From: a virus
Lineage: Duplodnaviria; Heunggongvirae; Uroviricota; Caudoviricetes
Length of the DNA stretch: 64,000 nucleotides
Direction: 5' to 3' (one strand)
IMG/VR virus record: IMGVR_UViG_3300034107_000364
In this document: one piece after another, positions 3,346-36,700 of the stretch
Layout of the letters: every line of letters starts with the position of its first letter
Position numbering within the stretch: position 1 is the first letter of the stretch
Notes under the pieces: model-generated
Told to the model about the DNA's origin: nothing
The model's database searches: none
Seen by the model: the letters and a program-made list of their open reading frames with translations, nothing else
Translations under genes and position numbers: made by a program

Positions 3346-4545
3346 ATGAATATTGGTATTACAATTCACTTGTCAACAGAAAACGAAAGCATTTGGATAA
3401 ATGGTATTAAATTAAATGCTCTTTATTTACTTAAGGCTTTAAAAGAAATAGGTTATAATGTATACATATTAAATGCAAGTGAAGTTCAAGCACCTTATGA
3501 AGGTAAAATTGCATGGGATATAAATGAATTTCCAATATATGATTATAAAGAAAAAGCAAACGATACCGATTTAATGATATGGTTGGGTGCTACATATTCT
3601 GATCAAGATATTTTAGATTTTAAAAAGACTGGACCCAATAAAAAGGTTGTAAAATATGTATGTGGTAATAATTATATGAATGATGCCGAACATGTGATAT
3701 TTAACAATCCCGGAGCCGCCGGATATAATCAAGAAATTGACGAGATATGGTATGTACCGCAGCAAGAAGAATTAAATAGAGAATATTATAGAGTATTACA
3801 TAATTTACCTGCAAGTAAAGTTAGACCAGTTCCATTTATATGGGATCCTGTATTTTTAGATATAACTTCTGAAAAATATAACAATTCTGAAGTTATAGAA
3901 AAAGGATTACCAATTCCAATATACAAACCCGGGAAAGCAAATGAAGAAAAACAATTAGCATGTTTTGAACCTAATATTGGTATTCAAAAATGGCATATTA
4001 ATAACTTATTAATAGCTGAAGATTATTTAAATTCAGGTGGAAAGTTTAGTAGATTAAACATTATATGTGGAGATAAACTTTTACATAGTGAATATTACAC
4101 ATCAGTGATTAAACATACTACTATTTTTAATACAGATCCTATTAAACTTACATATTTACCAAGACTAATGGCTATTGATGCACTTGCTCAATTTGCAGAT
4201 ATTGTAATTGCACATCAATTATCAAATCCTCTTAACTACTCATACCTGGATGCACTTTATTTACAGTTTCCGTTAGTACATAATGCGCCAATGATTAAGG
4301 ACGCCGGATATTATTATTCAGGTAATAGTATAGGTATGGGAGCTAGACAACTGAAACTGGCAATAGAACAACATGACAACAATATAGAAGAATACACTGA
4401 AAGAAGTGAGAAAGTTCTAACACGATACACCATATTCAATGAAGGTTTATTAGAGACTTATAAGCAATTAATTGAAACTACGATGGGAATTAAAGATCAT
4501 AAGTTGGGTTCTATATATGATTGGTCAACTAATCTATATAAATAA
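3346..4545 (+). CDS. DUF2827-like putative glycosyltransferase
   Basis: MNIGIT...IWINGI..N N-terminus and HQ..NPLNYSYLDALY..FPLVHN C-terminal motif recalled for DUF2827. Confidence 0.65.
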   Translation: MNIGITIHLSTENESIWINGIKLNALYLLKALKEIGYNVYILNASEVQAPYEGKIAWDINEFPIYDYKEKANDTDLMIWLGATYSDQDILDFKKTGPNKKVVKYVCGNNYMNDAEHVIFNNPGAAGYNQEIDEIWYVPQQEELNREYYRVLHNLPASKVRPVPFIWDPVFLDITSEKYNNSEVIEKGLPIPIYKPGKANEEKQLACFEPNIGIQKWHINNLLIAEDYLNSGGKFSRLNIICGDKLLHSEYYTSVIKHTTIFNTDPIKLTYLPRLMAIDALAQFADIVIAHQLSNPLNYSYLDALYLQFPLVHNAPMIKDAGYYYSGNSIGMGARQLKLAIEQHDNNIEEYTERSEKVLTRYTIFNEGLLETYKQLIETTMGIKDHKLGSIYDWSTNLYK

Positions 4546-4548
4546 GAT

Positions 4549-5154
4549 ATGTCTATTAACACAAATAAGATAATTTTTAAAAGATTAGTACGAGAATATG
4601 AATTTCTAATAGAAGATCTAAAAGATATTGAAGTTGCGAACTCTGAAATAAAAGATTCGTTTATGAAGTCACTATCAGATATTGATGAGACTGGTATTTT
4701 AGAGACTGAACAAATGGACTCTATGGCAAATGATTGGGCTCGTAGTGTAAAAGATCTTGAAGACGAAGAAAAGGAATCTAATAAACATCCAGATTTTAAA
4801 AGCTTATTTAGAAAGGTAGTCATAAGATGTCATCCTGATAAATTACCAACTGATTTAACTGAAGTTAAATCAAATGAATATAAAGCTATTTATGAAGACT
4901 CGGTAGATGCTAATGAAACTGAAGATTGGGCTAAATTAATTAGATGTGCTATTAAATTAGAAATTGAATTACCGGAATCTGCATACGATCAAATAGAATC
5001 TATCGAAAATAGTATTAATAAGTTAAAAGAAAAACAGAATAATATATTATCTTCTACTGCATGGGCTTGGTATAAAACAAACGACAGTGATACCAAATTA
5101 GACATTTTAAAGCAACATTTAAATTTCATGGATCTTTTGACCAGAAAAAAATAA
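4549..5154 (+). CDS. J-domain-like protein (HPD motif, internal)
   Basis: FKSLFRKVVIRCHPDKL motif flanked by helical segments. Confidence 0.6.
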   Translation: MSINTNKIIFKRLVREYEFLIEDLKDIEVANSEIKDSFMKSLSDIDETGILETEQMDSMANDWARSVKDLEDEEKESNKHPDFKSLFRKVVIRCHPDKLPTDLTEVKSNEYKAIYEDSVDANETEDWAKLIRCAIKLEIELPESAYDQIESIENSINKLKEKQNNILSSTAWAWYKTNDSDTKLDILKQHLNFMDLLTRKK

Positions 5155-5242: not shown

Positions 5243-8194
5243 ATGTCTCAACTGAAACTAAAACAAATTCTTGAATTCCTATCTACATCACCAGCTACCG
5301 GTGACGTTTTAATGTATAATTCAAGCACTGGTAAATATGCAAACGCAGCATTGCCAAACACATTTGGATTACCATATAAATATAGTAATTCTACATCTGG
5401 TTTGGTAGCATCAGGTTTTTTAAGATTTAATAATATAGTTACGCCTACATCTCTTGTTATAAGTGAAACAAGCTCTAAAAGTCTTAGTGCTACAATTTCA
5501 TTAGATGCTATGACACTTTCTACTAATAATAGAAAGTCAATCATCGTTATTACAAGTGCAACCAATGGCAATATCTACAAAACATTTTACGTAAATAGTG
5601 TAACTCTAGGATCAGGTGAAAGAACGCTTGCTTTAGAACCTATAGCAAGTTCAAACTGGTCATCGTTAGTTAATAATGATGACTTATTCATGTTTATTCT
5701 ACCTATTGGTGACAGAGGAACTTCAGGAACTAATGGAACGAATGGTACTTCAGGAACGAATGGTAGTTCTGGTACTAATGGAACGAATGGAACTAGCGGT
5801 ACTAATGGTACATCTGGAACTAATGGTACTTCAGGAACGAATGGAACTAATGGTACTTCAGGAACGAATGGAACTAGTGGAACGAATGGTAGTTCTGGTT
5901 CAAGCGGAACTAATGGAACTAGTGGAACGAATGGTACTTCAGGTATCAAAGGTGTAACTGGAACGAATGCTGTAATTAGTATAGATCCTACTGTAACAGG
6001 TTTAGAAGGTACTCCTGCCAATGTCGTTAATATGGGTACTGAAAGTAATGCGATATTGAAATTCACAATTCCAGTAGGTGCAACAGGTTTAAAGGGTGCT
6101 CCAGGTACATCAGGTTCAAGTGGAACTAACGGTACATCTGGAACGAATGGATCTTCTGGTTCAAGTGGAACTAACGGTACATCTGGAACGAATGGATCTT
6201 CAGGTACAAATGGTACTAATGGATCTTCAGGAACTAACGGTACATCTGGAACTAATGGTACTTCAGGTGCTAAAGGTGCTCCTGGAACTTCTGGAACTAA
6301 TGGTACAAATGGAACTTCAGGAACTAATGGAACTTCAGGAACTAATGGTTCAAGTGGAACTAATGGAACTAATGGAACTTCAGGAACTAATGGTTCAAGT
6401 GGAACTAATGGAACTTCAGGAACTAATGGTTCAAGTGGAACTAATGGAACTAATGGAACTTCAGGTACGAATGGTACATCTGGAACTAATGGAACTTCTG
6501 GAACTAATGGTACAAATGGAACTTCAGGAACTAATGGAACTTCAGGAACTAATGGAACTTCAGGTACGAATGGTACATCTGGAACTAATGGATCTTCTGG
6601 AACTAATGGTACTAATGGAACTTCAGGAACTAACGGTACATCTGGAACGAATGGATCTTCAGGAACTAACGGTACATCTGGAACGAATGGATCTTCTGGT
6701 TCAAGTGGTACTAATGGAACTTCAGGTACAAATGGTACATCTGGAACTAATGGAACATCTGGTTCTTCTGGAACGAATGGAACTTCAGGTACAAATGGTA
6801 CTAATGGTACTTCAGGAACTAATGGAACTTCAGGAACTAATGGATCTTCAGGAACAAACGGTACGAATGGAACTTCAGGTACAAATGGTACATCTGGAAC
6901 TAATGGAACTTCAGGTATTAAAGGTCAAAAGGGTGAAATAGGTGTACAAGGAAATCCAGGTTGGGGCGTTACAATGCAAGGACAAGTTGCAACTTCTTTA
7001 TTATTACCAACACAAGGTAATTTAAATGGAGATGCATATATTGTACAAGCAGATGATTCACTTTGGATATGGACTTCAACAGACGGATGGATGGGAGGCG
7101 GTTCTATTCAAGGACCTCAAGGTAATACTGGTACTAATGGAACTAGTGGAACAAATGGTTCAAGTGGAACTAACGGTACATCTGGAACTAATGGAACTTC
7201 AGGAACTAATGGTAGTTCAGGTTCAAGTGGAACAAATGGAACTTCTGGTACAAATGGAACTTCAGGTGCTAAAGGTGCTCCTGGAACTTCAGGAACTAAT
7301 GGTTCAAGTGGTACTAATGGTAGTTCAGGTTCAAGTGGAACTAACGGAACTTCAGGAACTAATGGTACATCAGGAACTAATGGTACATCAGGTACAAATG
7401 GATCTTCAGGTTCAAGTGGAACTAATGGATCTTCAGGAACTAATGGAACAAGTGGTACTAATGGATCTTCAGGAACTAATGGAACAAATGGATCTTCAGG
7501 AACTAACGGTACTTCAGGAACTAATGGAACAAGTGGTACTAATGGATCTTCAGGAACTAACGGTACAAATGGATCTTCAGGAACTAACGGTACTTCAGGA
7601 ACGAATGGTAGTTCTGGTTCTTCTGGAACTAATGGAACAAGTGGTACTAATGGAACTAGCGGAACTAATGGTTCTTCAGGAACTAATGGTACAAACGGAT
7701 CTTCAGGAACTAATGGAACTAATGGTTCTTCAGGAACTAATGGTACAAACGGATCTTCAGGTGTAAAAGGTGATACCGGTACTTCTAACGCATATGCTAC
7801 GGCAATGAATCAAGATACTAAAACTGATTCAAATGTTCAATTTAATGATGTAATTATTACAAGAGCAGAAAAGGTGAGAATTATCACAGTCACTGGTGCA
7901 GGAGGCATATACAATGTTTCTCCAGATTTAGGTAATATATTTCAAATTACAGGTGGAGCAACTGCTGCAATAACTATGACTCCTGTTGGAGCTACTAATT
8001 ATGGACAATCAGGAACTATCATACTTGTAAATGGACCAAGTGGAACTACGTGGTCACAGTTACCAGCAAACATGTTAACACCATCTGGAGCAGATATTAA
8101 TTTTGTAACTGCACCAAATCTAGTATCAGTAATATCATTCATAATAAATAATAGCGGTCAAGTATTATGTAACTATGTAGGACATTTCGCATAA
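5243..8194 (+). CDS. Collagen-like tail/appendage fibre (GTN/GTS/GSS repeats)
   Basis: Long Gly-X-Y tracts interrupted by small globular domains; C-terminal fibre-type domain. Confidence 0.85.
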   Translation: MSQLKLKQILEFLSTSPATGDVLMYNSSTGKYANAALPNTFGLPYKYSNSTSGLVASGFLRFNNIVTPTSLVISETSSKSLSATISLDAMTLSTNNRKSIIVITSATNGNIYKTFYVNSVTLGSGERTLALEPIASSNWSSLVNNDDLFMFILPIGDRGTSGTNGTNGTSGTNGSSGTNGTNGTSGTNGTSGTNGTSGTNGTNGTSGTNGTSGTNGSSGSSGTNGTSGTNGTSGIKGVTGTNAVISIDPTVTGLEGTPANVVNMGTESNAILKFTIPVGATGLKGAPGTSGSSGTNGTSGTNGSSGSSGTNGTSGTNGSSGTNGTNGSSGTNGTSGTNGTSGAKGAPGTSGTNGTNGTSGTNGTSGTNGSSGTNGTNGTSGTNGSSGTNGTSGTNGSSGTNGTNGTSGTNGTSGTNGTSGTNGTNGTSGTNGTSGTNGTSGTNGTSGTNGSSGTNGTNGTSGTNGTSGTNGSSGTNGTSGTNGSSGSSGTNGTSGTNGTSGTNGTSGSSGTNGTSGTNGTNGTSGTNGTSGTNGSSGTNGTNGTSGTNGTSGTNGTSGIKGQKGEIGVQGNPGWGVTMQGQVATSLLLPTQGNLNGDAYIVQADDSLWIWTSTDGWMGGGSIQGPQGNTGTNGTSGTNGSSGTNGTSGTNGTSGTNGSSGSSGTNGTSGTNGTSGAKGAPGTSGTNGSSGTNGSSGSSGTNGTSGTNGTSGTNGTSGTNGSSGSSGTNGSSGTNGTSGTNGSSGTNGTNGSSGTNGTSGTNGTSGTNGSSGTNGTNGSSGTNGTSGTNGSSGSSGTNGTSGTNGTSGTNGSSGTNGTNGSSGTNGTNGSSGTNGTNGSSGVKGDTGTSNAYATAMNQDTKTDSNVQFNDVIITRAEKVRIITVTGAGGIYNVSPDLGNIFQITGGATAAITMTPVGATNYGQSGTIILVNGPSGTTWSQLPANMLTPSGADINFVTAPNLVSVISFIINNSGQVLCNYVGHFA
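5717..7770 (+). repeat. Degenerate 9-bp-unit coding repeat (GGAACTAAT/GGTACTTCA)
   Basis: Tandem triplet-codon repeats encoding GTN/GTS/GSS. Confidence 0.85.
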
Positions 8195-8221: not shown

Positions 8222-10951
8222 ATGAAGAATATAGGATTTTCTAGAATCGATTTTTGGAGTACATCAAGCGGTGTATCAACTTCAAAGAGTACTGCACAGT
8301 CTACTACGACTGCGTGGTCAACTTCTCAGTCTACGAATGAAGCTGTAACAACTTCAAGAATGACTGACAAGGCATTTAATACTAGTCAATCTACTACGAC
8401 CACTTGGACAACAGTGTGGTCAACTTCACATAGTACAACTACAGTTTGGTCTACATCACATAGTACAACTACAGTTTGGTCTACATCACATAGTACATCA
8501 ACAGTTTGGGCTACATTGGTTGATACTAATCAGACTACTAGTTTGGGTACTTCTAGATCTACAACAACAGTTTGGGGTACTTCTATTGGAACCAGTCAAA
8601 GCACATCACATAGTACTACAACTACTTGGACTACTTCATGGACAACTAATCAGAGTACGAGCACTTCATGGGTAACAACTTGGACAACTAGTCAATCTAC
8701 GAGTCAAAGTACAACTACTACTTATACAACTTCATGGACTACATTATGGAATACAAGTCAAGGTACGACAACTACTTGGACAACTTCATGGACTACAACT
8801 TATAGCACTAGTCATTCGACGAATAAAAGTACATCTACTGTATGGACTACTTCATGGGTTACAACATATAGTACTAGTCAATCGACTACAACTACTTATA
8901 CAACTTCATGGACAACTTCGTATAATACAAATCAAACTACTTCGCATAGTACAACTACTGCGTGGACTACAACTTGGGATACTGGTGTTTCTACGACAAC
9001 TTCATGGACAACTTCATGGACTACTTCATATAATACTAGTCAGACCACTTCACATAGTACAACAACAACTTGGACAACTTCGCATACTACTGCATATGAA
9101 CTGACAACTTCAATGGGTACAACTACTTCATGGACTACTGTGTGGTTAACGAGTCATTCAACTACAACTACATACACAACGTCATATGCAACTAGTCATA
9201 CAACGAGTCAAAGTACTAGTGCGTCTACAACAACAACTTATAGTACGAGTCATTCAACTACTACTACGTGGACTACTGCGTGGACTACAACTTATAGCAC
9301 AAGTCATGCTACAAGTCAATCGACTACGACCACGTATAACACAAGCCAAAGTACAACTACTACGTGGACTACTTCATGGTCTACTTCATATAATACATTA
9401 TATAGTACGAGTCAATCAACTACGACCACGTATAACACAAGCCAAAGTACTAGTCATACAACCGTTACAATATGGACTACTACGTGGACTACTTCATGGG
9501 CAACTAGTCACACTACGAGTCAATCAACTACTACAACATATAACACAAGTCATAGTACAAGTACTACGTGGACAACAACATATGCAACTAGTCACACTAC
9601 GAGTCAGTCAACAAGTAGAACTACAAGTACTACGTGGACAACTTCATATGCAACTAGCCATTCAACGACTACCACGTGGACTACAACATATAATACAAGT
9701 CAAGTTACACAAAGAGTAACTTCTCATAATACAACAACAACATATGCAACTAGTCATTCAACGACTACTACGTGGACAACTTCATGGGTTACAACATATG
9801 CAACTAGTCATAGTACGAGTCATTCTACTACAACTACATATAATACAAGTAGATCTACGAGTCAAATAACTAGATATACTTGGACTACTTCATGGACTAC
9901 CTCATATACAACTACTTGGGCAACGAGTCATGCAACTTCAACAGTTTATAATACATCTCGAATAACTTCGACTACTTATACAACTACATGGGGGACATCA
10001 GCTGGTGCAAGTAGAAGTACTGGAATAAATACCACAACTACATATACAACTACTTGGGTAACTTCACATGTTACGAGTCAAAGTACAACTACGACTTATG
10101 GAACTTCTCTAGCATTATCTAGATCTACACAAGTTGGTGGAGGTGGATCTTATACAACCACATGGTCGACAGCTATAAATTATACAACGACATGGAGTAC
10201 TTATGTTGAATATGGAACCAATTGGACGTCTACTGTTTCTTACACAACTACATGGTCATCATGGCAAGAATGGACAACTTACTGGGATCAATATGAATAT
10301 TATTGGGTAAGTTATACAGCAGAAAGAAGTACTGAAGCTTTCGATTGTATAGTCGAAGGAACGCCGATTAATATTTCAACGAATACTACTGTGCTTGTTG
10401 AAAGTTTAAAACTAAACGATAATATTTTAACAATGGATGGACCATTTAATGTTGATAATATACCGGCATTAATAGCAGTATCTACTCCTAATATTACAAA
10501 TAGTTTATCAATAGATGATATTTTAGTTAGAGCAGATCGTGTAAATGTTTTCGGTATCATAGATATAAATAATGGATTATTAAAAACTACAGCTGAACAT
10601 ATGCACATTTTTAAAAGAGATGGCGCATGGATCTCTAGAGCTGCTTCTGCATTACAACTTGGAGATAAATTATATCACATCAGTGGTATAGAAATAGAAA
10701 TAACTTCATTAGTTGAAGATACTACTACACCATATGTTGTTTATAAATTAGACACTGAACCCAACGATACATTTTTTGCAAATGGAATCTTAACTCATAA
10801 TAAGAAACCAGGTTTATGTGATTTTAATGGATATGGTCCATTCTTATGTGATCCAAATGATCCATGTTATGATCCATGTAGCCCATATGCAGGTGACTTT
10901 GGTTGTGATTATTTATGTGGTAAAGATGGTCCTGGAATTAAAGAGATGTAA
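8222..10951 (+). CDS. Thr/Ser/Trp-rich zipper protein A with C-terminal Hint domain and Cys-rich tail
   Basis: About 700 aa of TTxW/TSQ units, then CIVEGT...H...FFANGILTHN (Hint), then a 49-aa Cys-rich peptide. Confidence 0.85.
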   Translation: MKNIGFSRIDFWSTSSGVSTSKSTAQSTTTAWSTSQSTNEAVTTSRMTDKAFNTSQSTTTTWTTVWSTSHSTTTVWSTSHSTTTVWSTSHSTSTVWATLVDTNQTTSLGTSRSTTTVWGTSIGTSQSTSHSTTTTWTTSWTTNQSTSTSWVTTWTTSQSTSQSTTTTYTTSWTTLWNTSQGTTTTWTTSWTTTYSTSHSTNKSTSTVWTTSWVTTYSTSQSTTTTYTTSWTTSYNTNQTTSHSTTTAWTTTWDTGVSTTTSWTTSWTTSYNTSQTTSHSTTTTWTTSHTTAYELTTSMGTTTSWTTVWLTSHSTTTTYTTSYATSHTTSQSTSASTTTTYSTSHSTTTTWTTAWTTTYSTSHATSQSTTTTYNTSQSTTTTWTTSWSTSYNTLYSTSQSTTTTYNTSQSTSHTTVTIWTTTWTTSWATSHTTSQSTTTTYNTSHSTSTTWTTTYATSHTTSQSTSRTTSTTWTTSYATSHSTTTTWTTTYNTSQVTQRVTSHNTTTTYATSHSTTTTWTTSWVTTYATSHSTSHSTTTTYNTSRSTSQITRYTWTTSWTTSYTTTWATSHATSTVYNTSRITSTTYTTTWGTSAGASRSTGINTTTTYTTTWVTSHVTSQSTTTTYGTSLALSRSTQVGGGGSYTTTWSTAINYTTTWSTYVEYGTNWTSTVSYTTTWSSWQEWTTYWDQYEYYWVSYTAERSTEAFDCIVEGTPINISTNTTVLVESLKLNDNILTMDGPFNVDNIPALIAVSTPNITNSLSIDDILVRADRVNVFGIIDINNGLLKTTAEHMHIFKRDGAWISRAASALQLGDKLYHISGIEIEITSLVEDTTTPYVVYKLDTEPNDTFFANGILTHNKKPGLCDFNGYGPFLCDPNDPCYDPCSPYAGDFGCDYLCGKDGPGIKEM
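10346..10801 (+). other. Hint (intein-like/BIL-type) autoprocessing domain, C709-N860
   Basis: Block A CIVEGTPI, block B TTAEHMH, block F VYKLD, block G FFANGILTHN; +1 residue is Lys; no endonuclease. Confidence 0.8.
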
Positions 10952-10990
10952 ATAGAATAATAAATAGAAATAAATTATATAAACTAAAAC

Positions 10991-13150
10991 ATGGCGATTT
11001 ATACAACATATTGGACTACTTCATATCAAGCATATGGCCCTGTTCCATATTCTCGTGCAACTGCTGCATGGGTATATCCTAGTAGAACTACGAGTTATAT
11101 CGCGTATCCTAGTAGAACTACTTCGTTTTATAGAAACACTAGTCAAAGTACATTCTATTATGCAAATACTTCTCAGGTTACATATCCTCCTATAATTTAT
11201 GCTAGTACTTCATGGACTACATATTTTAATACTAGTCATGTTACATCTACTGCATGGACAACATCATACAATACTAGCAGAACTACATCACATGTAACCG
11301 CAACTTATTGGGATACTTATTGGACTACTTATTTTAACACTAGCCAAACTACGAGTCATAATACAACTACTACTTGGGCAACGAGTCATTCTACTAGTAC
11401 AGTATATAATACTTCTGCAAGTACTTCACATACTACTAGTCAAAGTACATTTTCGGATGTATCAACAGCTTGGACTACTACTTGGGCGACGAGTCATGCA
11501 ACATCAACTACGTATACAACATCATATGCAACTAGTCATTCAACGAGTCAAAGTACAAGTCTAGCAACATCAACAACATATAACACTAGTCATTCAACAT
11601 CAACTTCATATTGGACTGAGTGGATCACTAGTTGGGCAACGAGTCATGTAACGAGTCAAAGTACAACTACTACATACATAACGAGTCATGCAACGAGTCA
11701 AAGTACGACTACTACGTGGACTACATATTGGACTACAACGTATAATACGAGTCATGCGACGAGTCAATCGACAACAACTGCATATAACACTAGTCATTCA
11801 ACATCAACTTCATGGACTACAACATATATTACAAGTCGAGTTACCAGTGATTTAACAGCTCAGAATACAACGACAACATATACAACTAATTGGTCAACGA
11901 GTCATACAACGACTACAACATGGCTTACAAATTATGTAACTAGTCACATGACGAGTCAAAGTACTAGTAGATCTACAACGACAGCTTGGTCTACGAGTCA
12001 TAGTACAACTACTACGTGGACAACTACATATTCAACTAGTCACACTACGAGTCAGTCAACAAGTAGATCTACAACGACCACGTATAATACGAGTCATAGT
12101 ACAACTACTACGTGGACAACTTCATGGACTACTGCATATGTAACTAGTCACACAACGAGTCATGCTACATCGACAACATATAATACGAGTCAAGGTACGA
12201 GTAGATCTACATCTACAAGTTGGATTACATCTTGGATAACTACATATAATACGAGTCAAAGTACCACAACTACGTATACAACTACATGGTTAACAAGTCA
12301 CACTACGAGTCAATCTACGAGTCGAAGTACAACTACTACATGGGCTACAAGTCGGTCTACTAACCAATCGACTACAACCACGTACACGACTACATGGACA
12401 ACGAGTCATACAACGAGTCATAGTACAAGTCATAGTACAACTACAACTTGGTCAACTAGTCATGGAACTAGCCAATCAACGAGTCAGTCTACGACTACTA
12501 CGTGGACAACAACATATTCAACTAGTCACACAACGAGTCAATCTACTACGCTTAGTACAACGACAATTTGGCAAACTAATTGGACAACGAGTCAATCTAC
12601 GAGTCATAGTACAACGACAACATGGACGACTTCATGGTCAACTTCATTTTCTACTTCACAAAGTACAACTACAAGTTGGACAACGAGTCAGTCTACCAAT
12701 CAGTCAACGACTATGACGTATACTACTTCGTGGACTACAAATTGGAATACGAGCCAAAGTACAACTACAAGTTGGGTTACAGAATGGACAACTACTTGGG
12801 CAACTCTTAAAAATACGTCACAGTCTACGACTACTACGTATAATACGAGTGCATCTACGACTACTACGTATAATACAAGTGTATCTACAACGACCACTTA
12901 TAATACGAGCCAGAGTACGAGTCAATCGACAACTACAACTTGGTCAACTATTTATAGTGTTAGTACAGAATGGACAACCACATGGGCAACCACAACAACT
13001 TGGACTACAAGTGTATCTACGAGTACAAGTTGGACAACAACTTGGATTACAGCTTACGAAAAATTAGAAACTTGGTACGCAAATAATACACCTCTTAATA
13101 AACTATCTACAAATAGACAATGGAGACAAAATCCATATCAAGGTAATTAA
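10991..13150 (+). CDS. Thr/Ser/Trp-rich zipper protein B (mirror partner of protein A)
   Basis: 719 aa built from the same TTxW/TSQ/TSH units. Confidence 0.85.
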   Translation: MAIYTTYWTTSYQAYGPVPYSRATAAWVYPSRTTSYIAYPSRTTSFYRNTSQSTFYYANTSQVTYPPIIYASTSWTTYFNTSHVTSTAWTTSYNTSRTTSHVTATYWDTYWTTYFNTSQTTSHNTTTTWATSHSTSTVYNTSASTSHTTSQSTFSDVSTAWTTTWATSHATSTTYTTSYATSHSTSQSTSLATSTTYNTSHSTSTSYWTEWITSWATSHVTSQSTTTTYITSHATSQSTTTTWTTYWTTTYNTSHATSQSTTTAYNTSHSTSTSWTTTYITSRVTSDLTAQNTTTTYTTNWSTSHTTTTTWLTNYVTSHMTSQSTSRSTTTAWSTSHSTTTTWTTTYSTSHTTSQSTSRSTTTTYNTSHSTTTTWTTSWTTAYVTSHTTSHATSTTYNTSQGTSRSTSTSWITSWITTYNTSQSTTTTYTTTWLTSHTTSQSTSRSTTTTWATSRSTNQSTTTTYTTTWTTSHTTSHSTSHSTTTTWSTSHGTSQSTSQSTTTTWTTTYSTSHTTSQSTTLSTTTIWQTNWTTSQSTSHSTTTTWTTSWSTSFSTSQSTTTSWTTSQSTNQSTTMTYTTSWTTNWNTSQSTTTSWVTEWTTTWATLKNTSQSTTTTYNTSASTTTTYNTSVSTTTTYNTSQSTSQSTTTTWSTIYSVSTEWTTTWATTTTWTTSVSTSTSWTTTWITAYEKLETWYANNTPLNKLSTNRQWRQNPYQGN

Positions 13151-13273: not shown

Positions 13274-14209
13274 ATGGAAATGTTTAACAAGAAAGTTCTA
13301 GCAGAACGAATAGGACCTCTAAAAAAGAATGTAAATCTGGATGCCTTGGAAGAGGTTGAAAGATATGTGATTAAGAAATGTAAAGAATTAGGTATTGAAC
13401 ATAGTTATGATGTGATTGCCGAAGAAATGCCATACTTCAAAACTATGGGATATACCGAATATGCAACAGTATTTATGTTACAACCTTTAAATCTAAAGAT
13501 GCGAACAGGCCAAATCATGGATGCATATCTAGATAATGTTGAAGACGTTTCAGATTGGGCTGCATATTTCAGATCTAATATAGAATCTAAAATGGCTAAC
13601 AAGTATCAAGAGCGTAAAGAAGATTTTGATTCTTATTCAAATAAATCTATTCTTGTTATTCTTCCTGGATCAAATAAGCTTAAAACAAATTGTTGTTTAA
13701 ATAAATTAATTCAAATTGCTAAAGAGCATAAGGGTGATATTTACTTTAAACCACATCCAATTACAACGCACGCTGTAATTGGAGAAATCAAAGATCTCTT
13801 CGGTGAAGAAGCTATTTTACCTAGAGATATCGATTTGTATCACTTCTTACAAAAAGCAGAAAAGGTTTATACAACTCACATCAGTGAAAGTGCTTTATAT
13901 GCTACCGTTTTAGGTAAAGAAGTTGAGCCTATTGATGTTTGGAATAATGTACACCAAGGTTCTTTCTATGCAATCAATTCACACTTATTTGACCACAGAA
14001 ATAATGCACCAGAATGGGTTAATAGAACATTTTCAAGTCCTAAGTCTGGACTTATTCATCCAGTAATTGACAAAGATTGGAAGAAAAAGGTTGACTTGTA
14101 TTTTGAATACATTTTTGCCAAACGTAAATATTACAAAGGATGGTTCTTAGATCAACCTAAGAAAAATCCACAAAATAAACCAAATGGACCTAGTGGTCCT
14201 AAACGATAA
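13274..14209 (+). CDS. Capsule-polysaccharide-synthesis-like (KpsS/KpsC-type) glycosyltransferase
   Basis: IYFKPHP motif, then KVYT..SESALYA.VLGKEV typical of this GT-B group. Confidence 0.6.
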   Translation: MEMFNKKVLAERIGPLKKNVNLDALEEVERYVIKKCKELGIEHSYDVIAEEMPYFKTMGYTEYATVFMLQPLNLKMRTGQIMDAYLDNVEDVSDWAAYFRSNIESKMANKYQERKEDFDSYSNKSILVILPGSNKLKTNCCLNKLIQIAKEHKGDIYFKPHPITTHAVIGEIKDLFGEEAILPRDIDLYHFLQKAEKVYTTHISESALYATVLGKEVEPIDVWNNVHQGSFYAINSHLFDHRNNAPEWVNRTFSSPKSGLIHPVIDKDWKKKVDLYFEYIFAKRKYYKGWFLDQPKKNPQNKPNGPSGPKR

Positions 14210-14737
14210 ATGGAAAATTTACTATCAGACGAGTATAGATCCAAGATAGAAGCTGTTACTCAAAAAATGCCATGGGGCGGAGATGTAATAGGATCGGTTC
14301 CTAGAATTTATAAATATGCATCTGAACATAATTGCAAATCTATTTTAGATTATGGTTCTGGTAAATCTGATTTCTTGAAAACAATAGATCGTGATTTTCC
14401 AGATCATGGTTTTCAGATTAATCAATATGAACCAGCAAGACCTGAATTAGCTAGTGATCCAATCGCCAGTGATATGGTAATTTGTGTTGATGTACTCGAA
14501 CATATCGAGCCCGACAAATTAGATAATGTATTAGAACATATTGCTTCAAAGACAAATAAGATATTTTATTTTAAAGTGTGTTTGTTACCTTCTTTTAATT
14601 CATTTGAAGATGGAACAAATCTACATCTGATAGTCGAACCTAAAGAATTTTGGTTAGATAAATTATCTAAATATTACACATTAGAAGATATTGTTTCTCC
14701 ACGTGGACATGTATGGGGATTAGCAACAAAAAAATAA
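14210..14737 (+). CDS. Class I SAM-dependent methyltransferase
   Basis: ILDYGSGK motif I; DMVICVDVLEHI. Confidence 0.85.
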   Translation: MENLLSDEYRSKIEAVTQKMPWGGDVIGSVPRIYKYASEHNCKSILDYGSGKSDFLKTIDRDFPDHGFQINQYEPARPELASDPIASDMVICVDVLEHIEPDKLDNVLEHIASKTNKIFYFKVCLLPSFNSFEDGTNLHLIVEPKEFWLDKLSKYYTLEDIVSPRGHVWGLATKK

Positions 14738-14804: not shown

Positions 14805-15824
14805 ATGAAACTACTAATTTATGCGGGTTATCAAAGCCATGGATTCGATGGTAACACTACATATGGTCTCGGTGGAACAGAAGTATCTATAATTAAATTA
14901 GCCAAAGAGATGGTTAAGTTTGGTTATAAAGTTGTTGTTTCAGGCGAAGTTAATAATTCAGGATTAATCGATGGAGTAGAATGGATTTCAACTAATGATT
15001 TACATAACAAATACTTTGATCAATTTGATTTTATTGTTTCAGCAAGTTATATTCATTTCCTAAAAGAATTTAAAGGGTACAATGCTAAGAAGATATTTTG
15101 GGCACATAATACACATCATCATCCGTGGTTTAATGGTATAGAATTACAAGATGCTGACCAATTAATACAACAAGTGGATCATACAATATGTTTAACTAAT
15201 TGGCATAAGAATCAATGGTCAAATGCATATAATATACCACTAGATAAAATATCTGTCATTGGAAACGGTATAGACTTGTCTACCTTCTATGGCAACCCTG
15301 AAAAAATAAAAGGTAAATTCATATATAGTTCAGCAGCAGAACGGGGTTTAAAGGAATTATTGGAGAATTGGCACACGATTAAAAGAATAATGCCACATGC
15401 TACATTAGATGTGTTTTCACCAGCATATGCAATTACAGATATTGATGATAGTCATTACAACAAAAGCATGGGAATAAAATTCCACGGTTCTGTTAATCAA
15501 GAAATCTTACATAACGCAATGTTAAGATCAGAATATTGGTGCTACATAACAGATTATGAAGAGACTTATTGTATCACTGCACTAGAAATGCAATACGCTA
15601 AGGTACTTCCTATAGTTACAAATATTGCAGCATTAAATGAGACTGTAAATTCTGGAATTATATTAGATCGTCATGAAACAAATTGGGAACAAGTCGTAAA
15701 AATATTAGACACACTAGGTAATGAACTTAAAAACAAAGCAATTGAAGATGCTTTCCAATGGGCTAAATGTCAAACATGGAATGCTAGATCTTATGATTGG
15801 AAATCTACATTAGAATCTATATGA
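14805..15824 (+). CDS. GT4-like (GT-B) glycosyltransferase
   Basis: LGGTE N-terminal motif; NGID; EETYCITALEMQ (ExFxxxxxE-like). Confidence 0.85.
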   Translation: MKLLIYAGYQSHGFDGNTTYGLGGTEVSIIKLAKEMVKFGYKVVVSGEVNNSGLIDGVEWISTNDLHNKYFDQFDFIVSASYIHFLKEFKGYNAKKIFWAHNTHHHPWFNGIELQDADQLIQQVDHTICLTNWHKNQWSNAYNIPLDKISVIGNGIDLSTFYGNPEKIKGKFIYSSAAERGLKELLENWHTIKRIMPHATLDVFSPAYAITDIDDSHYNKSMGIKFHGSVNQEILHNAMLRSEYWCYITDYEETYCITALEMQYAKVLPIVTNIAALNETVNSGIILDRHETNWEQVVKILDTLGNELKNKAIEDAFQWAKCQTWNARSYDWKSTLESI

Positions 15825-17155
15825 AAATAGATAAAATTTATATAATTAGTTTAGAAGCTAATAAACCTGAAGCTCAAGGTAAAATAATAGAAAAGATCGA
15901 TGCTTTGCAATTACCATATGCAGTTGCATGGGAAATTGTTCAAGGATTTGATGGAAGATCTGGTGAAATATTACCAGGATATTCTGTATATAATGGTTGG
16001 AATTTAAAAGATGAAACCACAAATGGTTGGTGGCAACGTGAAGTAACTCCAGGTGAAACAGGTTGTGCAATAAGTCATCATATGATTTGGCAAAAAATCA
16101 TAGATGACAAAGTTGAAGTAGCACTGATATTAGAAGATGATTTTCATAAAGTAAAATCATTTAATAATCCAATAATTCCAGAAGTCGAATACGATATTGC
16201 ATTCCTAGGTCGACATGCTTTATTTCCAGGAGATGAATTATTAGTTGCTCATAATTGGGTAGAAGTGTTAAGTAGTTATAATACGCATGCATATATTATT
16301 AAACACAACACTGCACTTACATTGTTAAATGAATATAATTTTACGGAGAATCTTATTACGCCTGATGAATTTTTAACAGCGACTTTTACAAAGCATAGAC
16401 GTGAAGATATTGCAGAACTATTTCCTCCTAAACTTAAAGCAATAGCACCTACTGTAAATTTTATAGAACAAGATCGACCACATTCTGAATCTAACACAGA
16501 ACCTGTTGGTGCAAATATAAATCTAATGAAAGAAAGCAATCAACCGTATTTTGAAATCTTAGATGATTCAGATTGGGAATTATGGAAATCTAAATATTTA
16601 AATCATACATTATCTAAGGGTGAATATGACTTAATGATAGATGATATTGGTAATAATATCTACGAGTTTCCATTATTCACTGATAAATTCTGTAAAGAAG
16701 CAGTAGCTTTAGCAGAGACTCTAGATAAGTGGACACTAGACAGACATGAATTTTATCCAACAAATGATGTCTTATTACCCGAACTTGGTTTAGATCAAAT
16801 TTATGGTAGAGTATTAAGAGAAGTTGTATATCCTATTTGTATTCATTTATGGAGATTAGATGGTCAAGGTTGGTCAACAATGTTTAGTGAAAACTTTATG
16901 GCAAGATACACAACAGATCGTCAATCTCACTTGAGCTTACATCATGATTTCAGTCATGTTACTATGGTTGTAAAATTGAATGACGAGTTTGATGGTGGTG
17001 GAACATGGTTTCCTAAATACAAAACACTATCAAATCCAAGAAAAGTTGGAACAGCAACATTACATCCAGGCATGGTCACACATTTACACGGAGCTAGACC
17101 AATAACAGCAGGTAAAAGATATGTTTGTGTATCGTTTATGAGAAAAGAGAATTAA
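15821..17155 (+). CDS. GT25 glycosyltransferase fused to a 2OG-Fe(II) oxygenase (lysyl hydroxylase/PLOD-like)
   Basis: GETGCAISH..W...ILEDD (GT25); HHD...GGGTWF...HPG..THLHG......GKRY (2OG dioxygenase); start taken at the ATG overlapping the upstream stop. Confidence 0.8.
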   Translation: MKIDKIYIISLEANKPEAQGKIIEKIDALQLPYAVAWEIVQGFDGRSGEILPGYSVYNGWNLKDETTNGWWQREVTPGETGCAISHHMIWQKIIDDKVEVALILEDDFHKVKSFNNPIIPEVEYDIAFLGRHALFPGDELLVAHNWVEVLSSYNTHAYIIKHNTALTLLNEYNFTENLITPDEFLTATFTKHRREDIAELFPPKLKAIAPTVNFIEQDRPHSESNTEPVGANINLMKESNQPYFEILDDSDWELWKSKYLNHTLSKGEYDLMIDDIGNNIYEFPLFTDKFCKEAVALAETLDKWTLDRHEFYPTNDVLLPELGLDQIYGRVLREVVYPICIHLWRLDGQGWSTMFSENFMARYTTDRQSHLSLHHDFSHVTMVVKLNDEFDGGGTWFPKYKTLSNPRKVGTATLHPGMVTHLHGARPITAGKRYVCVSFMRKEN

Positions 17156-33796: not shown

Positions 33797-36700
33797 ATGT
33801 CAAATTCAAAAAAATTAACAGATTATAATTTTGCGCACGGTCTTCATCGTGGTCAAAACGGTTTTTATAGACCAATTTTGCCCGAAGATGTAAATCGACC
33901 TTTAACGCATGATGAAATGGATTATAATATTCAGCTTATTGGAGGTATTATTGGTGGATATAGAGTAATAGGAACAGGTACAGATAGCGTATTAGATGTA
34001 ACTAATGATGCAAATAAAAGCTTAAAGCTGTATAAAGTAACATCAAATGATACTGAAATTATTGCTAGTGGATCTGAAATCAACGATCTAGTTTGGATTG
34101 TAGATACTGAGGTTCTTTCCTTTGGAGAAGTAACTGACGATTTGATACCAAACCAGAATGAGGTGTATGATTTAGGTTCTCCTACTAAAAAATTTAGAGA
34201 TCTTTATTTAAGTAACAACACATTATATTTAGGTACAAATACACTAAGTATGGTTGGAGGTAGCTTACAAGTTAATGGAAGTCCAATTGGTGCCGGTAGT
34301 GAATTATTAGATAATATTAATGACGTAGCTAATCTTTTAGGAATTGAAACATCGATCAGAGTTGAGGCAATAACAGACATAAATAGTCAAATAAATTTAA
34401 TAGCTGATGAAAATTCTGCAATGGCACAATCAGTGCTCGATCTTGATACTCAATTTACAGCAGATTTAACAAATGCTATAACTGGTGAAACATTAGCTAG
34501 AACAACAGCCATATCTGGTATAAATCAAACTTTAACTTCATTATCTAATGCTAACGCAGCAACAGCACAATCAGTGCTCGATCTTGATACAGCTTTTACA
34601 ACTGAGATAACTGCGGCAGTTGGTGCTGAAACAGCATCTAGAACAACAGCAATATCTGGTATAAATCAAACTTTAACCTCATTATCTAATGCTAATCAAG
34701 CAACAGCACAATCAGTGCTCGATCTTGATACTCAATTTACCGCAGATTTAACAAATGCTATTACTGGTGAAACATTAGCAAGAACAACAGCCATATCTGG
34801 TATAAATCAAACTTTAACCGCACTATCTAATGCTGATGAAGCAACTGCACAGTCGGTTACCGATTTAGGTACAGCTTTTACTGCTGACATAACCGCTGCA
34901 GTTGGTGCTGAAACATCAGCAAGAACAACAGCAATATCTGGTATAAATCAAACTTTAACTTCAATATCTAATGCTAATCAAGCAATTGCACAATCAGTTA
35001 CTGATTTAGGTTCTTCTTTTACTAGTGATATAGAAGATGCAGTTGGTGCTGAAACATTAGCAAGAACCGCAGCAATATCAGATATAAATCAAACTTTAAC
35101 TTCAATAACTAATGCTAATGAAGCAACAGCGCAGTCAGTTACTGATTTAAGTACATCTTTTACCAGTGAAATCACTGGAGCAATTTCAACTGAAGCGCTA
35201 GCAAGACAAAATGCTCTTGCAGCTGAAGTATTAGCAAGAGCCGCAGCAATACAAAGCGCTGTAGATTTAATTCCTGATCCTACAGGATTTGCAACAACTG
35301 AAGATTTAGAAGCAGAAACAACTAGTAGAGTTAGTGCTATAGCAGCAGAAGCTGCTGAAAGAGCACGTCTTCTAGGAATAGAAACAACAGCTAGAACAAC
35401 AGCAATATCTGGTATAAATCAAACGCTAACAACATTAAATGATGCTAATTCAGCAACAGCACAGTCTGTAACAAATTTAAGTGCATCTTTTGCAAGTGAT
35501 TTAACAGACTTAGAAACTGATCAAAATCTTTTAAGAACAAATGCAATTGCTGAGGTAGAAAGTTCAATATCAGCATTAACAACTGCAAACGAAGCTGTTG
35601 CCCTTTCTGTTACTAATTTAGGTACACAATTCGAAACTGATATCGATGCAGCAATTACAGGAGAAGCTGCTATAAGAGCATTAGCAATAACAAATATAGG
35701 TGAACAAATATCTTCTTTAAGTAATGGTGATGGAGCAAACGCGACCAGATTAAATACTTTGGAAGCACAATATACAATAACAGACGGATCGATACTTGGT
35801 TTTAGCCAAACTTCTGCTCTTAAAACTGTAATTGATTCTGCAATCGCAACTGCTAATCAAGCAACTGTAAGTTCAACAACTGATTTAATAGCAGAATTAG
35901 GAGAGCAAACTGCCGGTGTAACACAATCAATGAGTGCAGATATTAATGCACTTACTAATAAAGTAAACGCGCAATACACACTAGAAGTAAATGCTGATGG
36001 TAATGTTGCTGGTATGAGATTAGGCGCAGATGAAACTGGTAGTTCAATTGCATTTACAGCAGATTCCTTTAAAGTATCTTCTGGAGGTCCAAATGGAGAA
36101 TTATTAACTCCATTCTCTATAGTAAACGGACAAGTTGCATTTAATGGAGCTGTTAGTTTTTCTTCAGGCACTACTGGTCCTGCTGGTCCTGCCGGTACTA
36201 ATGGTATTAATGGTACTAATGGTAGAGATGGTGCTGATGGTACAAATGGTTTAAATGGATCAAATGGTCTCCCTGGAGCACCTGGTGCCGATGGAGTTTC
36301 TACATATTTCCATGTTGCATATGCTGATACTGCTTCAGGCGGAGGATTCAGTCAATTACCAGCCGGCAAACTCTATATTGGTACTTATGTTGATACAACT
36401 GCAGATGACGCATCATCTGCTAGTAATCTATGGAAATGGCAACTAGTTAAAGGAGAAGATGGTCTTAATGGAGAAAACGGTATCGCCGGTGTTAATGGTG
36501 CTGATGGATTAACTTCATATTTACATATTGCCTATGCTACAAACGCAACAGGTACAACTGGTTTTCACTTAAGTCAATCACTAGATAAAACTTACTTAGG
36601 AACATACACTGATTTTACTGAAGCTGACTCAACAAATCCAGCTCTTTATACATGGACTTTAATTAAAGGTGCTGATGGTGCTGATGGTTTAAATGGATCG

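Follow-up and report, generated by a model that had tools for sequence, protein, structure and literature searches.

Two Adjacent Phage Genes Encode Mirror-Complementary Proteins Likely to Pair Antiparallel in a Long Beta Fibre

Locus Organization

We analyzed a 64,000-nucleotide (nt) stretch of DNA from a tailed phage (Caudoviricetes; IMG/VR record IMGVR_UViG_3300034107_000364), hereafter the window, in which two adjacent genes encode threonine-rich proteins, named here A and B. The order of residues in protein B is a mirror complement of that in the stalk of protein A; this complementarity was confirmed and is stronger than first described. The features of the two genes, with protein lengths in amino acids (aa), were as follows:

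8222..10951, plus strand: protein A, whole open reading frame (ORF), 909 aa
8222..10345, plus strand: stalk of protein A, residues 1–708, composed of xTx[W/Y/F] and xTx[Q/H/R/K] units; mirror complement of B
9086..9103, plus strand: TTAYEL, residues 289–294 of A, where the pairing register moves from sum 707 to sum 709
10346..10801, plus strand: probable Hint/bacterial-intein-like (BIL) domain of A, Cys709–Asn860, with predicted self-cleavage between Asp708 and Cys709
10802..10951, plus strand: tail of A that follows the Hint domain, Cys-rich (7 of its 49 aa), and the stop codon
10991..13150, plus strand: protein B, 719 aa, with the unit grammar of A; reverse complement of the stalk of A

Both ORFs were found where an earlier reading, made from the DNA letters without database searches (the sequence-only reading), had placed them. 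Genes A and B are separated by 39 nt. Threonine accounts for 33% of protein A and 39% of protein B, and no cysteine is present in residues 1–708 of A or in B, the final ~25 aa of which are a non-repeat sequence. Neither the A stalk nor B matched any family of Pfam or PHROGs; a search of PDB chain sequences with B gave no hit at E ≤ 1, and a lookup in the ESM Atlas listed only viral 'hypothetical protein' clusters. Long ORFs in alternate frames or on the opposite strand were also seen at 5587..7766, 9186..9719, and 12462..12716 (for example, 281 aa at 6096..6941); they are rich in L, Q, V, E, and M and appear to be by-products of the repeats, not genes.

Mirror Complementarity of A and B in the Window

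In both proteins the sequence advances by dipeptides, Thr occupying alternate positions over most of the stalks, and it divides into successive units that end either in W, Y, or F (aromatic) or in Q, H, R, K, or a small residue (polar). In protein A, consecutive units were 4 residues apart in 30/30 aromatic-to-aromatic, 34/37 aromatic-to-polar, and 24/34 polar-to-polar steps, and 6 residues apart in 32/38 polar-to-aromatic steps; the respective counts in protein B were 30/33, 35/37, 34/41, and 34/36. These counts bear out the spacing rule of the sequence-only reading, that is, 6 residues from polar to aromatic and 4 for all other steps. The rule maps onto itself under reverse-complementing.

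The proteins were coded as strings of aromatic and polar units, and A was locally aligned to B reversed and with the classes swapped; the unit parser required T or S two residues upstream, and gaps were filled with wildcards. This alignment scored 100, compared with 48–70 for nine other transformations (A/B, A/A, and B/B), and included 111 matches, 5 mismatches, 3 gaps, and 19 ambiguous units. With ambiguous units taken as polar, the score rose to 119, versus 63.6 ± 3.8 for 300 shuffles of B preserving the run-length distribution only; the claimed reverse-complement match thus lies above the highest shuffle (79). The self reverse-complement scores of A alone (61) and B alone (60) were at background. 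The run-length string reported from the letters (A2 B1 A2 B2 A3 B2 A1 B1 A1 B4..., A standing here for aromatic and B for polar units) is legible in residues 75–250 of protein B, and all ten residue pairs named in that reading sit at their positions.

The numbers of paired residues add up to 707 for 58 units and to 709 for 67 units, residue 1 of B lying opposite residue ~708 of A. The sum switches at TTAYEL (A 289–294), so the insertion suspected there is indeed a register shift. When compared without gaps, residues 1–292 of A (sum 707) gave 47 aromatic:QHRK pairs, 6 same-class pairs, and 92 T:T pairs, and residues 293–637 (sum 709) gave 65, 1, and 107, respectively; in shifted control registers, aromatic:QHRK pairs had means of 12–14 and maxima of 34–47. 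The net number of complementary pairs was 106 in the true registers versus 43 in the best other register. Pairs of units in the window (n = 135) were mainly Y:H (46), W:Q (45), and W:R (14).

Conservation of the Match and Compensatory Changes in Related Loci

A sequence search with B led to a syntenic locus, L001, encoding a collagen-like protein, a Hint-bearing A protein (1,211 aa), a B protein (1,042 aa), and a 311-aa protein. Its A and B aligned with 210 matches, 7 mismatches, and 16 gaps (score 171 versus 108–121 in other orientations), with a dominant sum of 1026 for 168 units. The unit strings differ between the two phages: window A scored 67 with L001 B, L001 A scored 74 with window B, and the two A proteins compared forward scored 69. 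All mixed or forward inter-phage comparisons (67–80) were at background, as opposed to 100 and 171 for each phage's own pair.

With the 311-aa gene as bait, 50 loci were retrieved, of which 21 had a complete pair of T-rich ORFs upstream; together with the window they formed a set of 22 A/B pairs, each tested with 40 run-length shuffles. The mirror score was above every shuffle in 22/22 pairs (z 5.2–16.2) and above the three other orientations in 21/22, the remaining pair (L026) doing so only if ambiguous units were taken as polar. The dominant sum spanned 275–1,200 and tracked the length of both proteins. The match anticipated for homologous pairs is therefore kept in all 22, with different strings and lengths. 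The N-terminus of A, compared across all 22 pairs, is conserved, with the motif MKNIGFSRIDFW (MKNIGF.R.DFW). The set includes near-duplicates (L012 = L019; L004 and L005 are 90–92% identical), and the residue statistics below are based on 16 pairs, with L005, L013, L019, L028, L031, and L042 omitted. Single T-rich ORFs in L009, L046, L018, and L038 had no self-complementarity; they are B-type or truncated by contig ends.

Compensatory changes, also foreseen in the sequence-only reading, are present in close relatives both as mirrored indels and as W↔Q/R and Y↔H swaps. Compared to L006, protein A of L004 has 24 and 10 extra aa (643–666 and 779–788), and its protein B has 10 and 24 (171–180 and 276–299). 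Mirrored indels, two of 12 aa and one of 4 aa, were also found between L014 and L042; both A and B show a net difference of 26 aa between L012 and L013, and a 40-aa difference between L029 and L031. Class swaps were compensated at the homologous partner site in three of four clean comparisons of close relatives (W812→R with Q150→W, F377→R with R36→F, and Y294→H with H128→Y); the swap between L026 and L028 was uncompensated, and its partner sites failed to align. Between L017 and L020, the alignments of which were poor, 3/5 swaps were compensated.

In the standard code, Tyr and His, as well as Trp and Arg, are one T↔C transition apart at the first codon position, so that a Y:H or W:R pair is flipped with a single transition in each gene. 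The Y294→H/H128→Y swap of L014/L042 is of this kind.

In three loci (L014 8429..9949, L042 8406..9947, and L044 1759..4067), B has an extra non-repeat C-terminal domain of 85–135 aa, which ends in Cys, belongs to no Pfam family, and in L044 is also present on A. This domain is possibly a receptor-binding tip.

Residue-Level Pairing Code

Of 2,337 aligned unit pairs, 1,741 were aromatic:QHRK, 69 were same-class, and 527 were other; two residues off the aligned units, Thr stood opposite Thr 2,090 times. Every second residue belongs to one 'key' face, on which Thr lies opposite Thr and each aromatic residue opposite a polar one. Specificity was analyzed in 1,789 aromatic:polar pairs (Glu included) from 16 non-redundant phages and is independent of alignment building. 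His was found opposite Tyr in 228/239 cases and Gln opposite Trp in 214/271; the partners of Arg were Phe (282), Trp (213), and Tyr (95); Lys paired with any aromatic residue, and Glu stood opposite Tyr in 43/48 cases. Mutual information was 0.332 bits, versus 0.022 ± 0.005 (maximum 0.042) for 500 within-phage shuffles. In the window alone, His:Tyr accounted for 46/48 and Gln:Trp for 45/47.

The pair preferences are, hence, Trp:Gln, Tyr:His, Phe/Trp:Arg, and any aromatic:Lys, arranged in an aperiodic order that differs between phages. No single repeat period was found within a gene, and the fixed repeat length of beta-helix or beta-solenoid shafts was not seen, as copies of the DNA repeats lie 12 to 204 nt apart. 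The two-class mirror code of the sequence-only reading proved to be real; the finer four-letter specificity, the Hint domain at the end of the pairing, and the single-chain relatives had escaped it.

Single-Chain Relatives and Structure Prediction

A single ORF of 1,297 aa in locus L010 (3550..7443) carries the N-terminal motif of A and the C-terminal motif of B. It scored 237 against its own reverse complement (132.5 ± 7.0 for 30 shuffles); the sum was 1293 (227 units), and the mirror centre falls in the loop ATGGDAKAKAAETS. Judging by its sequence, L010 is a natural A–B fusion joined exactly at the ends predicted to meet. AlphaFold2, run on the single sequence of its central 120 aa, gave a long β-hairpin (mean pLDDT 76.6) with strands 4–21, 29–53, 66–90, and 102–119, symmetric about residue ~60, the mirror centre of the sequence being 60.5; the model was read as strand positions and pLDDT, not as cross-strand register. 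Foldseek comparison of this model with the PDB returned one match at E ≤ 0.001, TM-scores being 0.34 or less. Its top rows were long-beta-hairpin proteins (pore formers and tail tubes), which indicates only an elongated hairpin in the model.

Self-complementarity was also found in another family of single-chain fibres, whose members begin with a baseplate-wedge domain (PF23786): 66 versus 30.5 ± 7.4 for P0003, 72 versus 28.4 ± 5.4 for P0006, and 51 versus 29.4 ± 6.9 for P0007. The AlphaFold2 model of the hairpin region of P0003 (451 aa, 3-sequence alignment) had a mean pLDDT of 30.8 and spurious helices and is uninformative. Two complex predictions for A 301–480 with B 229–408 each scored 0.00, which weighs neither for nor against binding.

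Ends of the Proposed Fibre

The Hint domain of A was recognized by Pfam at levels under the cut-offs: Intein_splicing (E 1.1e-4, 22.5 bits, cut-off 35.8) and PT-HINT (E 5.6e-4, 20.6 bits, cut-off 27.7). A profile of seven orthologous Hint domains matched PDB sequences of BIL2 (6Y75/6TMM, E 1.3e-7) and of several inteins (E 1.5e-3 to 0.04). Cys1 (Cys709 in the window) is invariant in 7/7 orthologues, as are T82 and H85 of the TxxH motif (TAEH), which we take to be block B; the terminal Asn is present in 7/7 and is preceded by His in 6/7 (Tyr in L033). The +1 residue after this Asn is K, R, R, K, N, F, and K in the seven orthologues, never Cys, Ser, or Thr; the domain is, therefore, not a classical splicing intein, and cleavage or BIL-type transfer is its likely chemistry as judged from these residues. 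It is predicted to cut between Asp708 and Cys709 and, in this way, to free itself from the stalk. BIL2 is reported to work independently of ATP, joining the sequence on its N-terminal side to a lysine in a second protein (PMC8616854).

The position of Cys1 and the pairing sum (709/709, 1027/1026, 891/892, 972/962, 938/928, 414/406, and 831/830) are 0–10 residues apart in all seven Hint-bearing pairs, so that processed A would end where B starts. Cys-rich tails after the Hint domain were also found in L001, L003, L004, and L006 and were absent in L007 and L033. With the Hint domain as a query, a single intein was matched (Phage NCTB), and no relatives were found in viral contigs.

In L026, the place of the Hint domain at the C-terminus of A is occupied by Peptidase_S74 (E 2.6e-6, 28.1 bits, cut-off 22); the C-terminal sequences of L024 and L028 are similar to it by eye, that of L024 having no Pfam match. 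Peptidase_S74 was not detected by Pfam in A or B of the window. Protein A of some other loci ends in a Gly-run/Cys tail, C.R(G/N)C. (e.g., GGCARGCI). A methyltransferase-like ORF lies between A and B in L012 (4233..5282), L017 (5232..6314), and L026 (5135..5701); in L012 and L017, where A has the Gly-run/Cys tail, its product is a fusion with a C-terminal Hint half that lacks Cys1 and the terminal His-Asn. The L012 protein matched Methyltransf_25 (E 1.3e-4) and Intein_splicing (E 5.6e-3) and was 43% identical to the C-terminal half of the window Hint domain.

At the opposite end, the N-terminus of A is preceded in the window by the following gene:

5243..8194, plus strand: collagen-like protein, 983 aa, with G-T-N/G-T-S triplets; Pfam Collagen PF01391, E 2e-86

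The last ~84 aa of this protein are a conserved C-terminal module, kept even where the protein is not collagen-like: L012 encodes a non-collagen protein in this position, and its C-terminus shares 40% identity (E 7e-16) with the 84 aa. By adjacency, the collagen-like protein is a candidate attachment partner of the A/B fibre.

Proposed Assembly and Alternative Explanations

We consider it likely that A and B, being mirror complements, associate into one very long beta fibre in which the chains run antiparallel and in register, with residue i of A next to residue ~709 − i of B. Antiparallel in-register association, put forward already in the sequence-only reading, is well supported by covariation, by the L010 fusion, and by residue-specific pairing. 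In an antiparallel beta sheet, the key-face pairs would sit side by side on adjacent strands, the aperiodic order would favour the true register far over any other (net 106 versus 43), and the handed 6-residue step would mirror the twist of the sheet. The closed end of the duplex would be formed by the C-terminus of A and the N-terminus of B; it carries the Hint domain in the window, an S74 chaperone or a short Gly/Cys tail in some relatives, and a loop of 10–14 residues in one. The C-terminal Hint or S74 domain may be a removable assembly cap at this nucleating end. The conserved open end, made up of the N-terminus of A and the C-terminus of B, would dock to another part of the virion, possibly to the C-terminal module of the upstream collagen-like protein. 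As S74 chaperones, which form trimers, occur in relatives and the needle of T4 gp37 is six-stranded, three A:B duplexes probably bundle (A3B3) with their small Ser/Thr/Asn face inward; this analogy-based step is the least certain. We infer a length, when extended, of about 230 nm, attachment to the collagen-like protein, and presence in the virion.

A stronger claim is that A and B form a true protein 'duplex' in the manner of complementary nucleic acid strands, in which a code of four or more letters (Trp:Gln, Tyr:His, Phe/Trp:Arg, and aromatic:Lys, with Thr:Thr spacers), running aperiodically through beta strands of 275–1,200 residues, alone sets partner, polarity, register, and length; in our judgement the chances for and against it are even. 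Zipping would then begin at the C-terminus of A and the nascent N-terminus of B, made consecutively from adjacent genes, and the BIL-type Hint domain would subsequently seal or trim that end.

Several points weigh against the proposed fibre. In the last ~70 residues of A (sum 710), only 7 complementary pairs were counted versus 6 same-class pairs, which leaves the pairing near the closed end unclear in the window. Neither class fits 527 of the 2,337 unit pairs, mostly with Thr, Ser, Glu, Val, or Ile opposite an aromatic residue. The loci are akin, and thus the 22 pairs are not 22 independent trials; moreover, their z values are based on just 40 shuffles each. One member of the PF23786 family, P0002, gave no significant result in the unit test (42 versus 32.1 ± 6.9). 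Both strand faces are polar or aromatic, without a classical hydrophobic core, which makes the stability of a 230-nm two-stranded ribbon doubtful, and the idea of a trimer is based on analogy and on the S74 domain of relatives, which is absent in the window. Support for the fibre as a whole consists of covariation and of one moderate-confidence model of a relative.

Explanations without any protein contact have very little to commend them. If the mirror relation were a by-product of events in DNA (inverted duplication, antisense coding, or templated mutation), it would agree with the adjacency of the two genes and with the DNA repeat units that they share (16 direct-repeat families). However, only 3 inverted pairs (20–23 nt, 74–80%) were found within 4.9 kb, and reverse-complemented gene A had 0.33–0.35 identity with gene B at the mirror offsets (z 1.2–1.6), below the top identity of 0.373, which falls at an unrelated offset. 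Under the standard code, reverse-complementing the Trp codon (TGG) yields Pro, and Thr codons (ACN) become codons for Ser, Gly, Cys, or Arg; neither Gln/His nor Thr results, and the similarity of A and B runs in direct orientation, reaching 82% over 133 nt. A DNA-level origin was rejected on account of the scarce inverted repeats and of the lack of excess identity at the mirror offsets, and we assign it a negligible probability; direct repeats common to both genes, with no inverted match, indicate that A and B are direct-orientation paralogues with mirror protein strings. Just as improbable is a chance or low-complexity artefact, whereby reversing and swapping one of two proteins would suffice to align them well, provided that both alternate short runs of two kinds of unit. 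Shuffled strings did reach about half of the real score (63.6 versus 119), and shifted registers locally gave up to 47 pairs versus 65. Nevertheless, the real score exceeded all 300 shuffles, A and B were at background with their own reverse complements, and true partners matched in 22/22 pairs, whereas pairs mixed between phages stayed at background.

The remaining alternatives concern the structure. A bare two-stranded antiparallel ribbon of one A and one B chain without bundling, as proposed in the sequence-only reading, is a tenable but rather doubtful option: the 1:1 fusion in L010, the complementarity with a single register, and the plain hairpin predicted by AlphaFold2 at the fusion centre speak for it, while both of its faces would be exposed along hundreds of residues. 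Furthermore, relatives bear Peptidase_S74, a domain that accompanies trimers in known fibres. Among solved structures, the T4 gp37 needle comes closest and has six strands (PMC9659904), and the sequence data fit two strands or six alike. Face-to-face packing of strands from different sheets, as in a steric-zipper-like cross-beta core, would also yield a constant residue sum, as any antiparallel contact does; it is improbable, since such packing usually brings large side chains against small ones, and here large aromatic residues meet large Gln, His, Arg, and Lys. The specific Tyr:His, Trp:Gln, and Phe:Arg pairs, together with Thr:Thr found 2,090 times, would fit lateral cross-strand neighbours better. 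Finally, B might act only during assembly, as a template or chaperone determining how A folds or how long it is, and be missing from the finished fibre. Phage fibres often need dedicated chaperones encoded alongside, and A bears self-removing C-terminal modules; but B is as long as A and co-varies with it residue by residue, and the two are permanently fused in L010 and in the PF23786 family, which makes this role very improbable.

If the proposed pairing of A and B is true, it is a natural case of a protein assembly whose partner, orientation, register, and length are specified by a linear, aperiodic code of side chains; such coding is otherwise linked to nucleic acids and, in periodic form, to coiled coils. 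It would account for the escape of long low-complexity fibre proteins from mis-registration and for the fast evolution of fibre length (275 to 1,200 residues) via paired insertions. Its simple rules (Trp:Gln, Tyr:His, Phe:Arg, Thr:Thr, and the handed 6-residue step) would be usable in protein design, and a rewritable code would allow addressable protein fibres of chosen length. The A/B proteins would then represent a widespread, unannotated class of fibres, found in large uncultured phages and equipped with dedicated processing domains (Hint and S74) and enzymes, namely the methyltransferase-like and transferase-like neighbours.

Neighbouring Genes and Source of the Window

Downstream of B, the window encodes the following proteins:

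13274..14209, plus strand: 311-aa protein, phrog_26179 (function unassigned there)
14210..14737, plus strand: methyltransferase-like protein, 175 aa; Methyltransf_23, E 6.9e-4, under the cut-off

The 311-aa gene lies directly 3' of B in every related locus (50 loci, retrieved with that gene), and residues K159, P160, H161, and P162 of its product were invariant in 12/12 sequences. The protein had a weak match to polysialyltransferase (E 0.029), and a 12-sequence profile had no match among PDB sequences; its identity as a Kdo-type transferase was thus not confirmed by sequence. Two glycosyltransferase-type proteins are encoded after the methyltransferase-like gene. The downstream genes had no Megablast match in the phage collection.

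A 452-aa protein (15797..17155) combines glycosyltransferase family 25 (E 2.5e-15) with a region resembling the 2-oxoglutarate oxygenase OGFOD2 (E 1.3e-4), and its gene sits a few genes from that of the collagen-like protein. Enzyme pairs of this sort, glycosyltransferase and oxygenase, modify collagen. Directly 5' of the collagen-like gene, a conserved 201-aa protein is encoded (4549..5154; homologue at 2778..3380 in L001); its 'CHPDKL' resembles the HPD signature of J domains, and no Pfam hit was obtained (best E 0.043, unrelated). The preceding gene (3346..4545) encodes a full-length DUF2827 protein of 399 aa (E 6.4e-76), present at the same place in L001 (1579..2778). A 1,744-aa protein encoded at 33797..39031 matched many tail-fibre and host-adsorption families of PHROGs (best E 1.4e-70) and contains a collagen-like stretch; this is a second fibre gene, separate from A and B.

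Besides this fibre-like protein, a baseplate wedge gene, a helicase, and an RNA ligase were found elsewhere in the window. The helicase is nearest to that of a 462-kb uncultured phage (45.6% identity), followed by Lak megaphages and phage PAU. Together with the baseplate wedge gene and the other genes named, this affinity indicates that the window comes from a large, uncultured, contractile-tailed phage.

Comparison with Known Systems

Full-text literature searches, which covered sources other than subscription journals, yielded no description of this pairing. Host-recognition clusters of pelagimyophages are described in the consulted passages of PMC7029224 as rich in fibres and glycosyltransferases, and A/B proteins do not appear in those passages.

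In the needle of T4 gp37 (Bartual et al. 2010, as cited in an extract of PMC9659904), chains run out and fold back, three chains giving six strands. Long antiparallel beta strands along the fibre axis are likewise expected here, and L010 and the P0003 family would run out and back in the same manner. In contrast, gp37 is the product of one gene and forms a homotrimer with a short needle, whereas here the arms are encoded by separate genes and comprise 700–1,200 residues. Residues 781–1026 of gp37 contain 7 HxH motifs and 9–11% Thr; the A stalk and B have 0 HxH motifs and 33–39% Thr. No aromatic:polar pairing code is described for gp37 in the extract, and B has no sequence similarity to gp37 (no PDB match at E ≤ 1).

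The proposed stacking of aromatic residues with Arg or Gln of an antiparallel neighbour strand resembles that in the thrombospondin type-1 repeat (TSR), and TSP_1 was matched by neither A nor B in the Pfam scan. The TSR is a single-chain domain of ~60 residues with disulfides and WxxW spacing; the stalks described here differ in having no Cys, a spacing of 4 or 6, two chains, and hundreds of rungs in an aperiodic order. Tryptophan zippers and designed hairpins are two-stranded and antiparallel, with 12–20 residues and Trp:Trp pairs; like the TSR ladders, they are periodic single chains. Cross-strand pairs on one face would be a common trait, and Thr-rich strands favour beta structure; unlike in the zippers, same-class pairs are avoided here (69/2,337), and the pairs are hetero-specific.

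The Hint domain of A shares Cys1, TxxH, the terminal Asn, and the lack of Cys/Ser/Thr at +1 with BIL2 of Tetrahymena (PDB 6Y75/6TMM). BIL2 lies between ubiquitin-like domains, whereas the N-terminal flank in the window is, as read from the sequence, a fibre stalk of 708 residues. The A protein of L026 is similar to endosialidase-type S74 fibres in that a self-cleaving C-terminal domain is located where the window has Hint; this shared position points to a removable assembly cap. As far as is known, fibres with this domain are homotrimers and have no second chain complementary to the first.

Conceptually, the proposed A/B pair is akin to heterospecific coiled coils and nucleic acid duplexes, in that a linear complementary code sets partner and register and the chains are antiparallel. 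It differs from them in that the chains would be beta strands, the letters are side chains (W:Q, Y:H, F/W:R, aromatic:K, and T:T), and their order is aperiodic instead of heptad-based.

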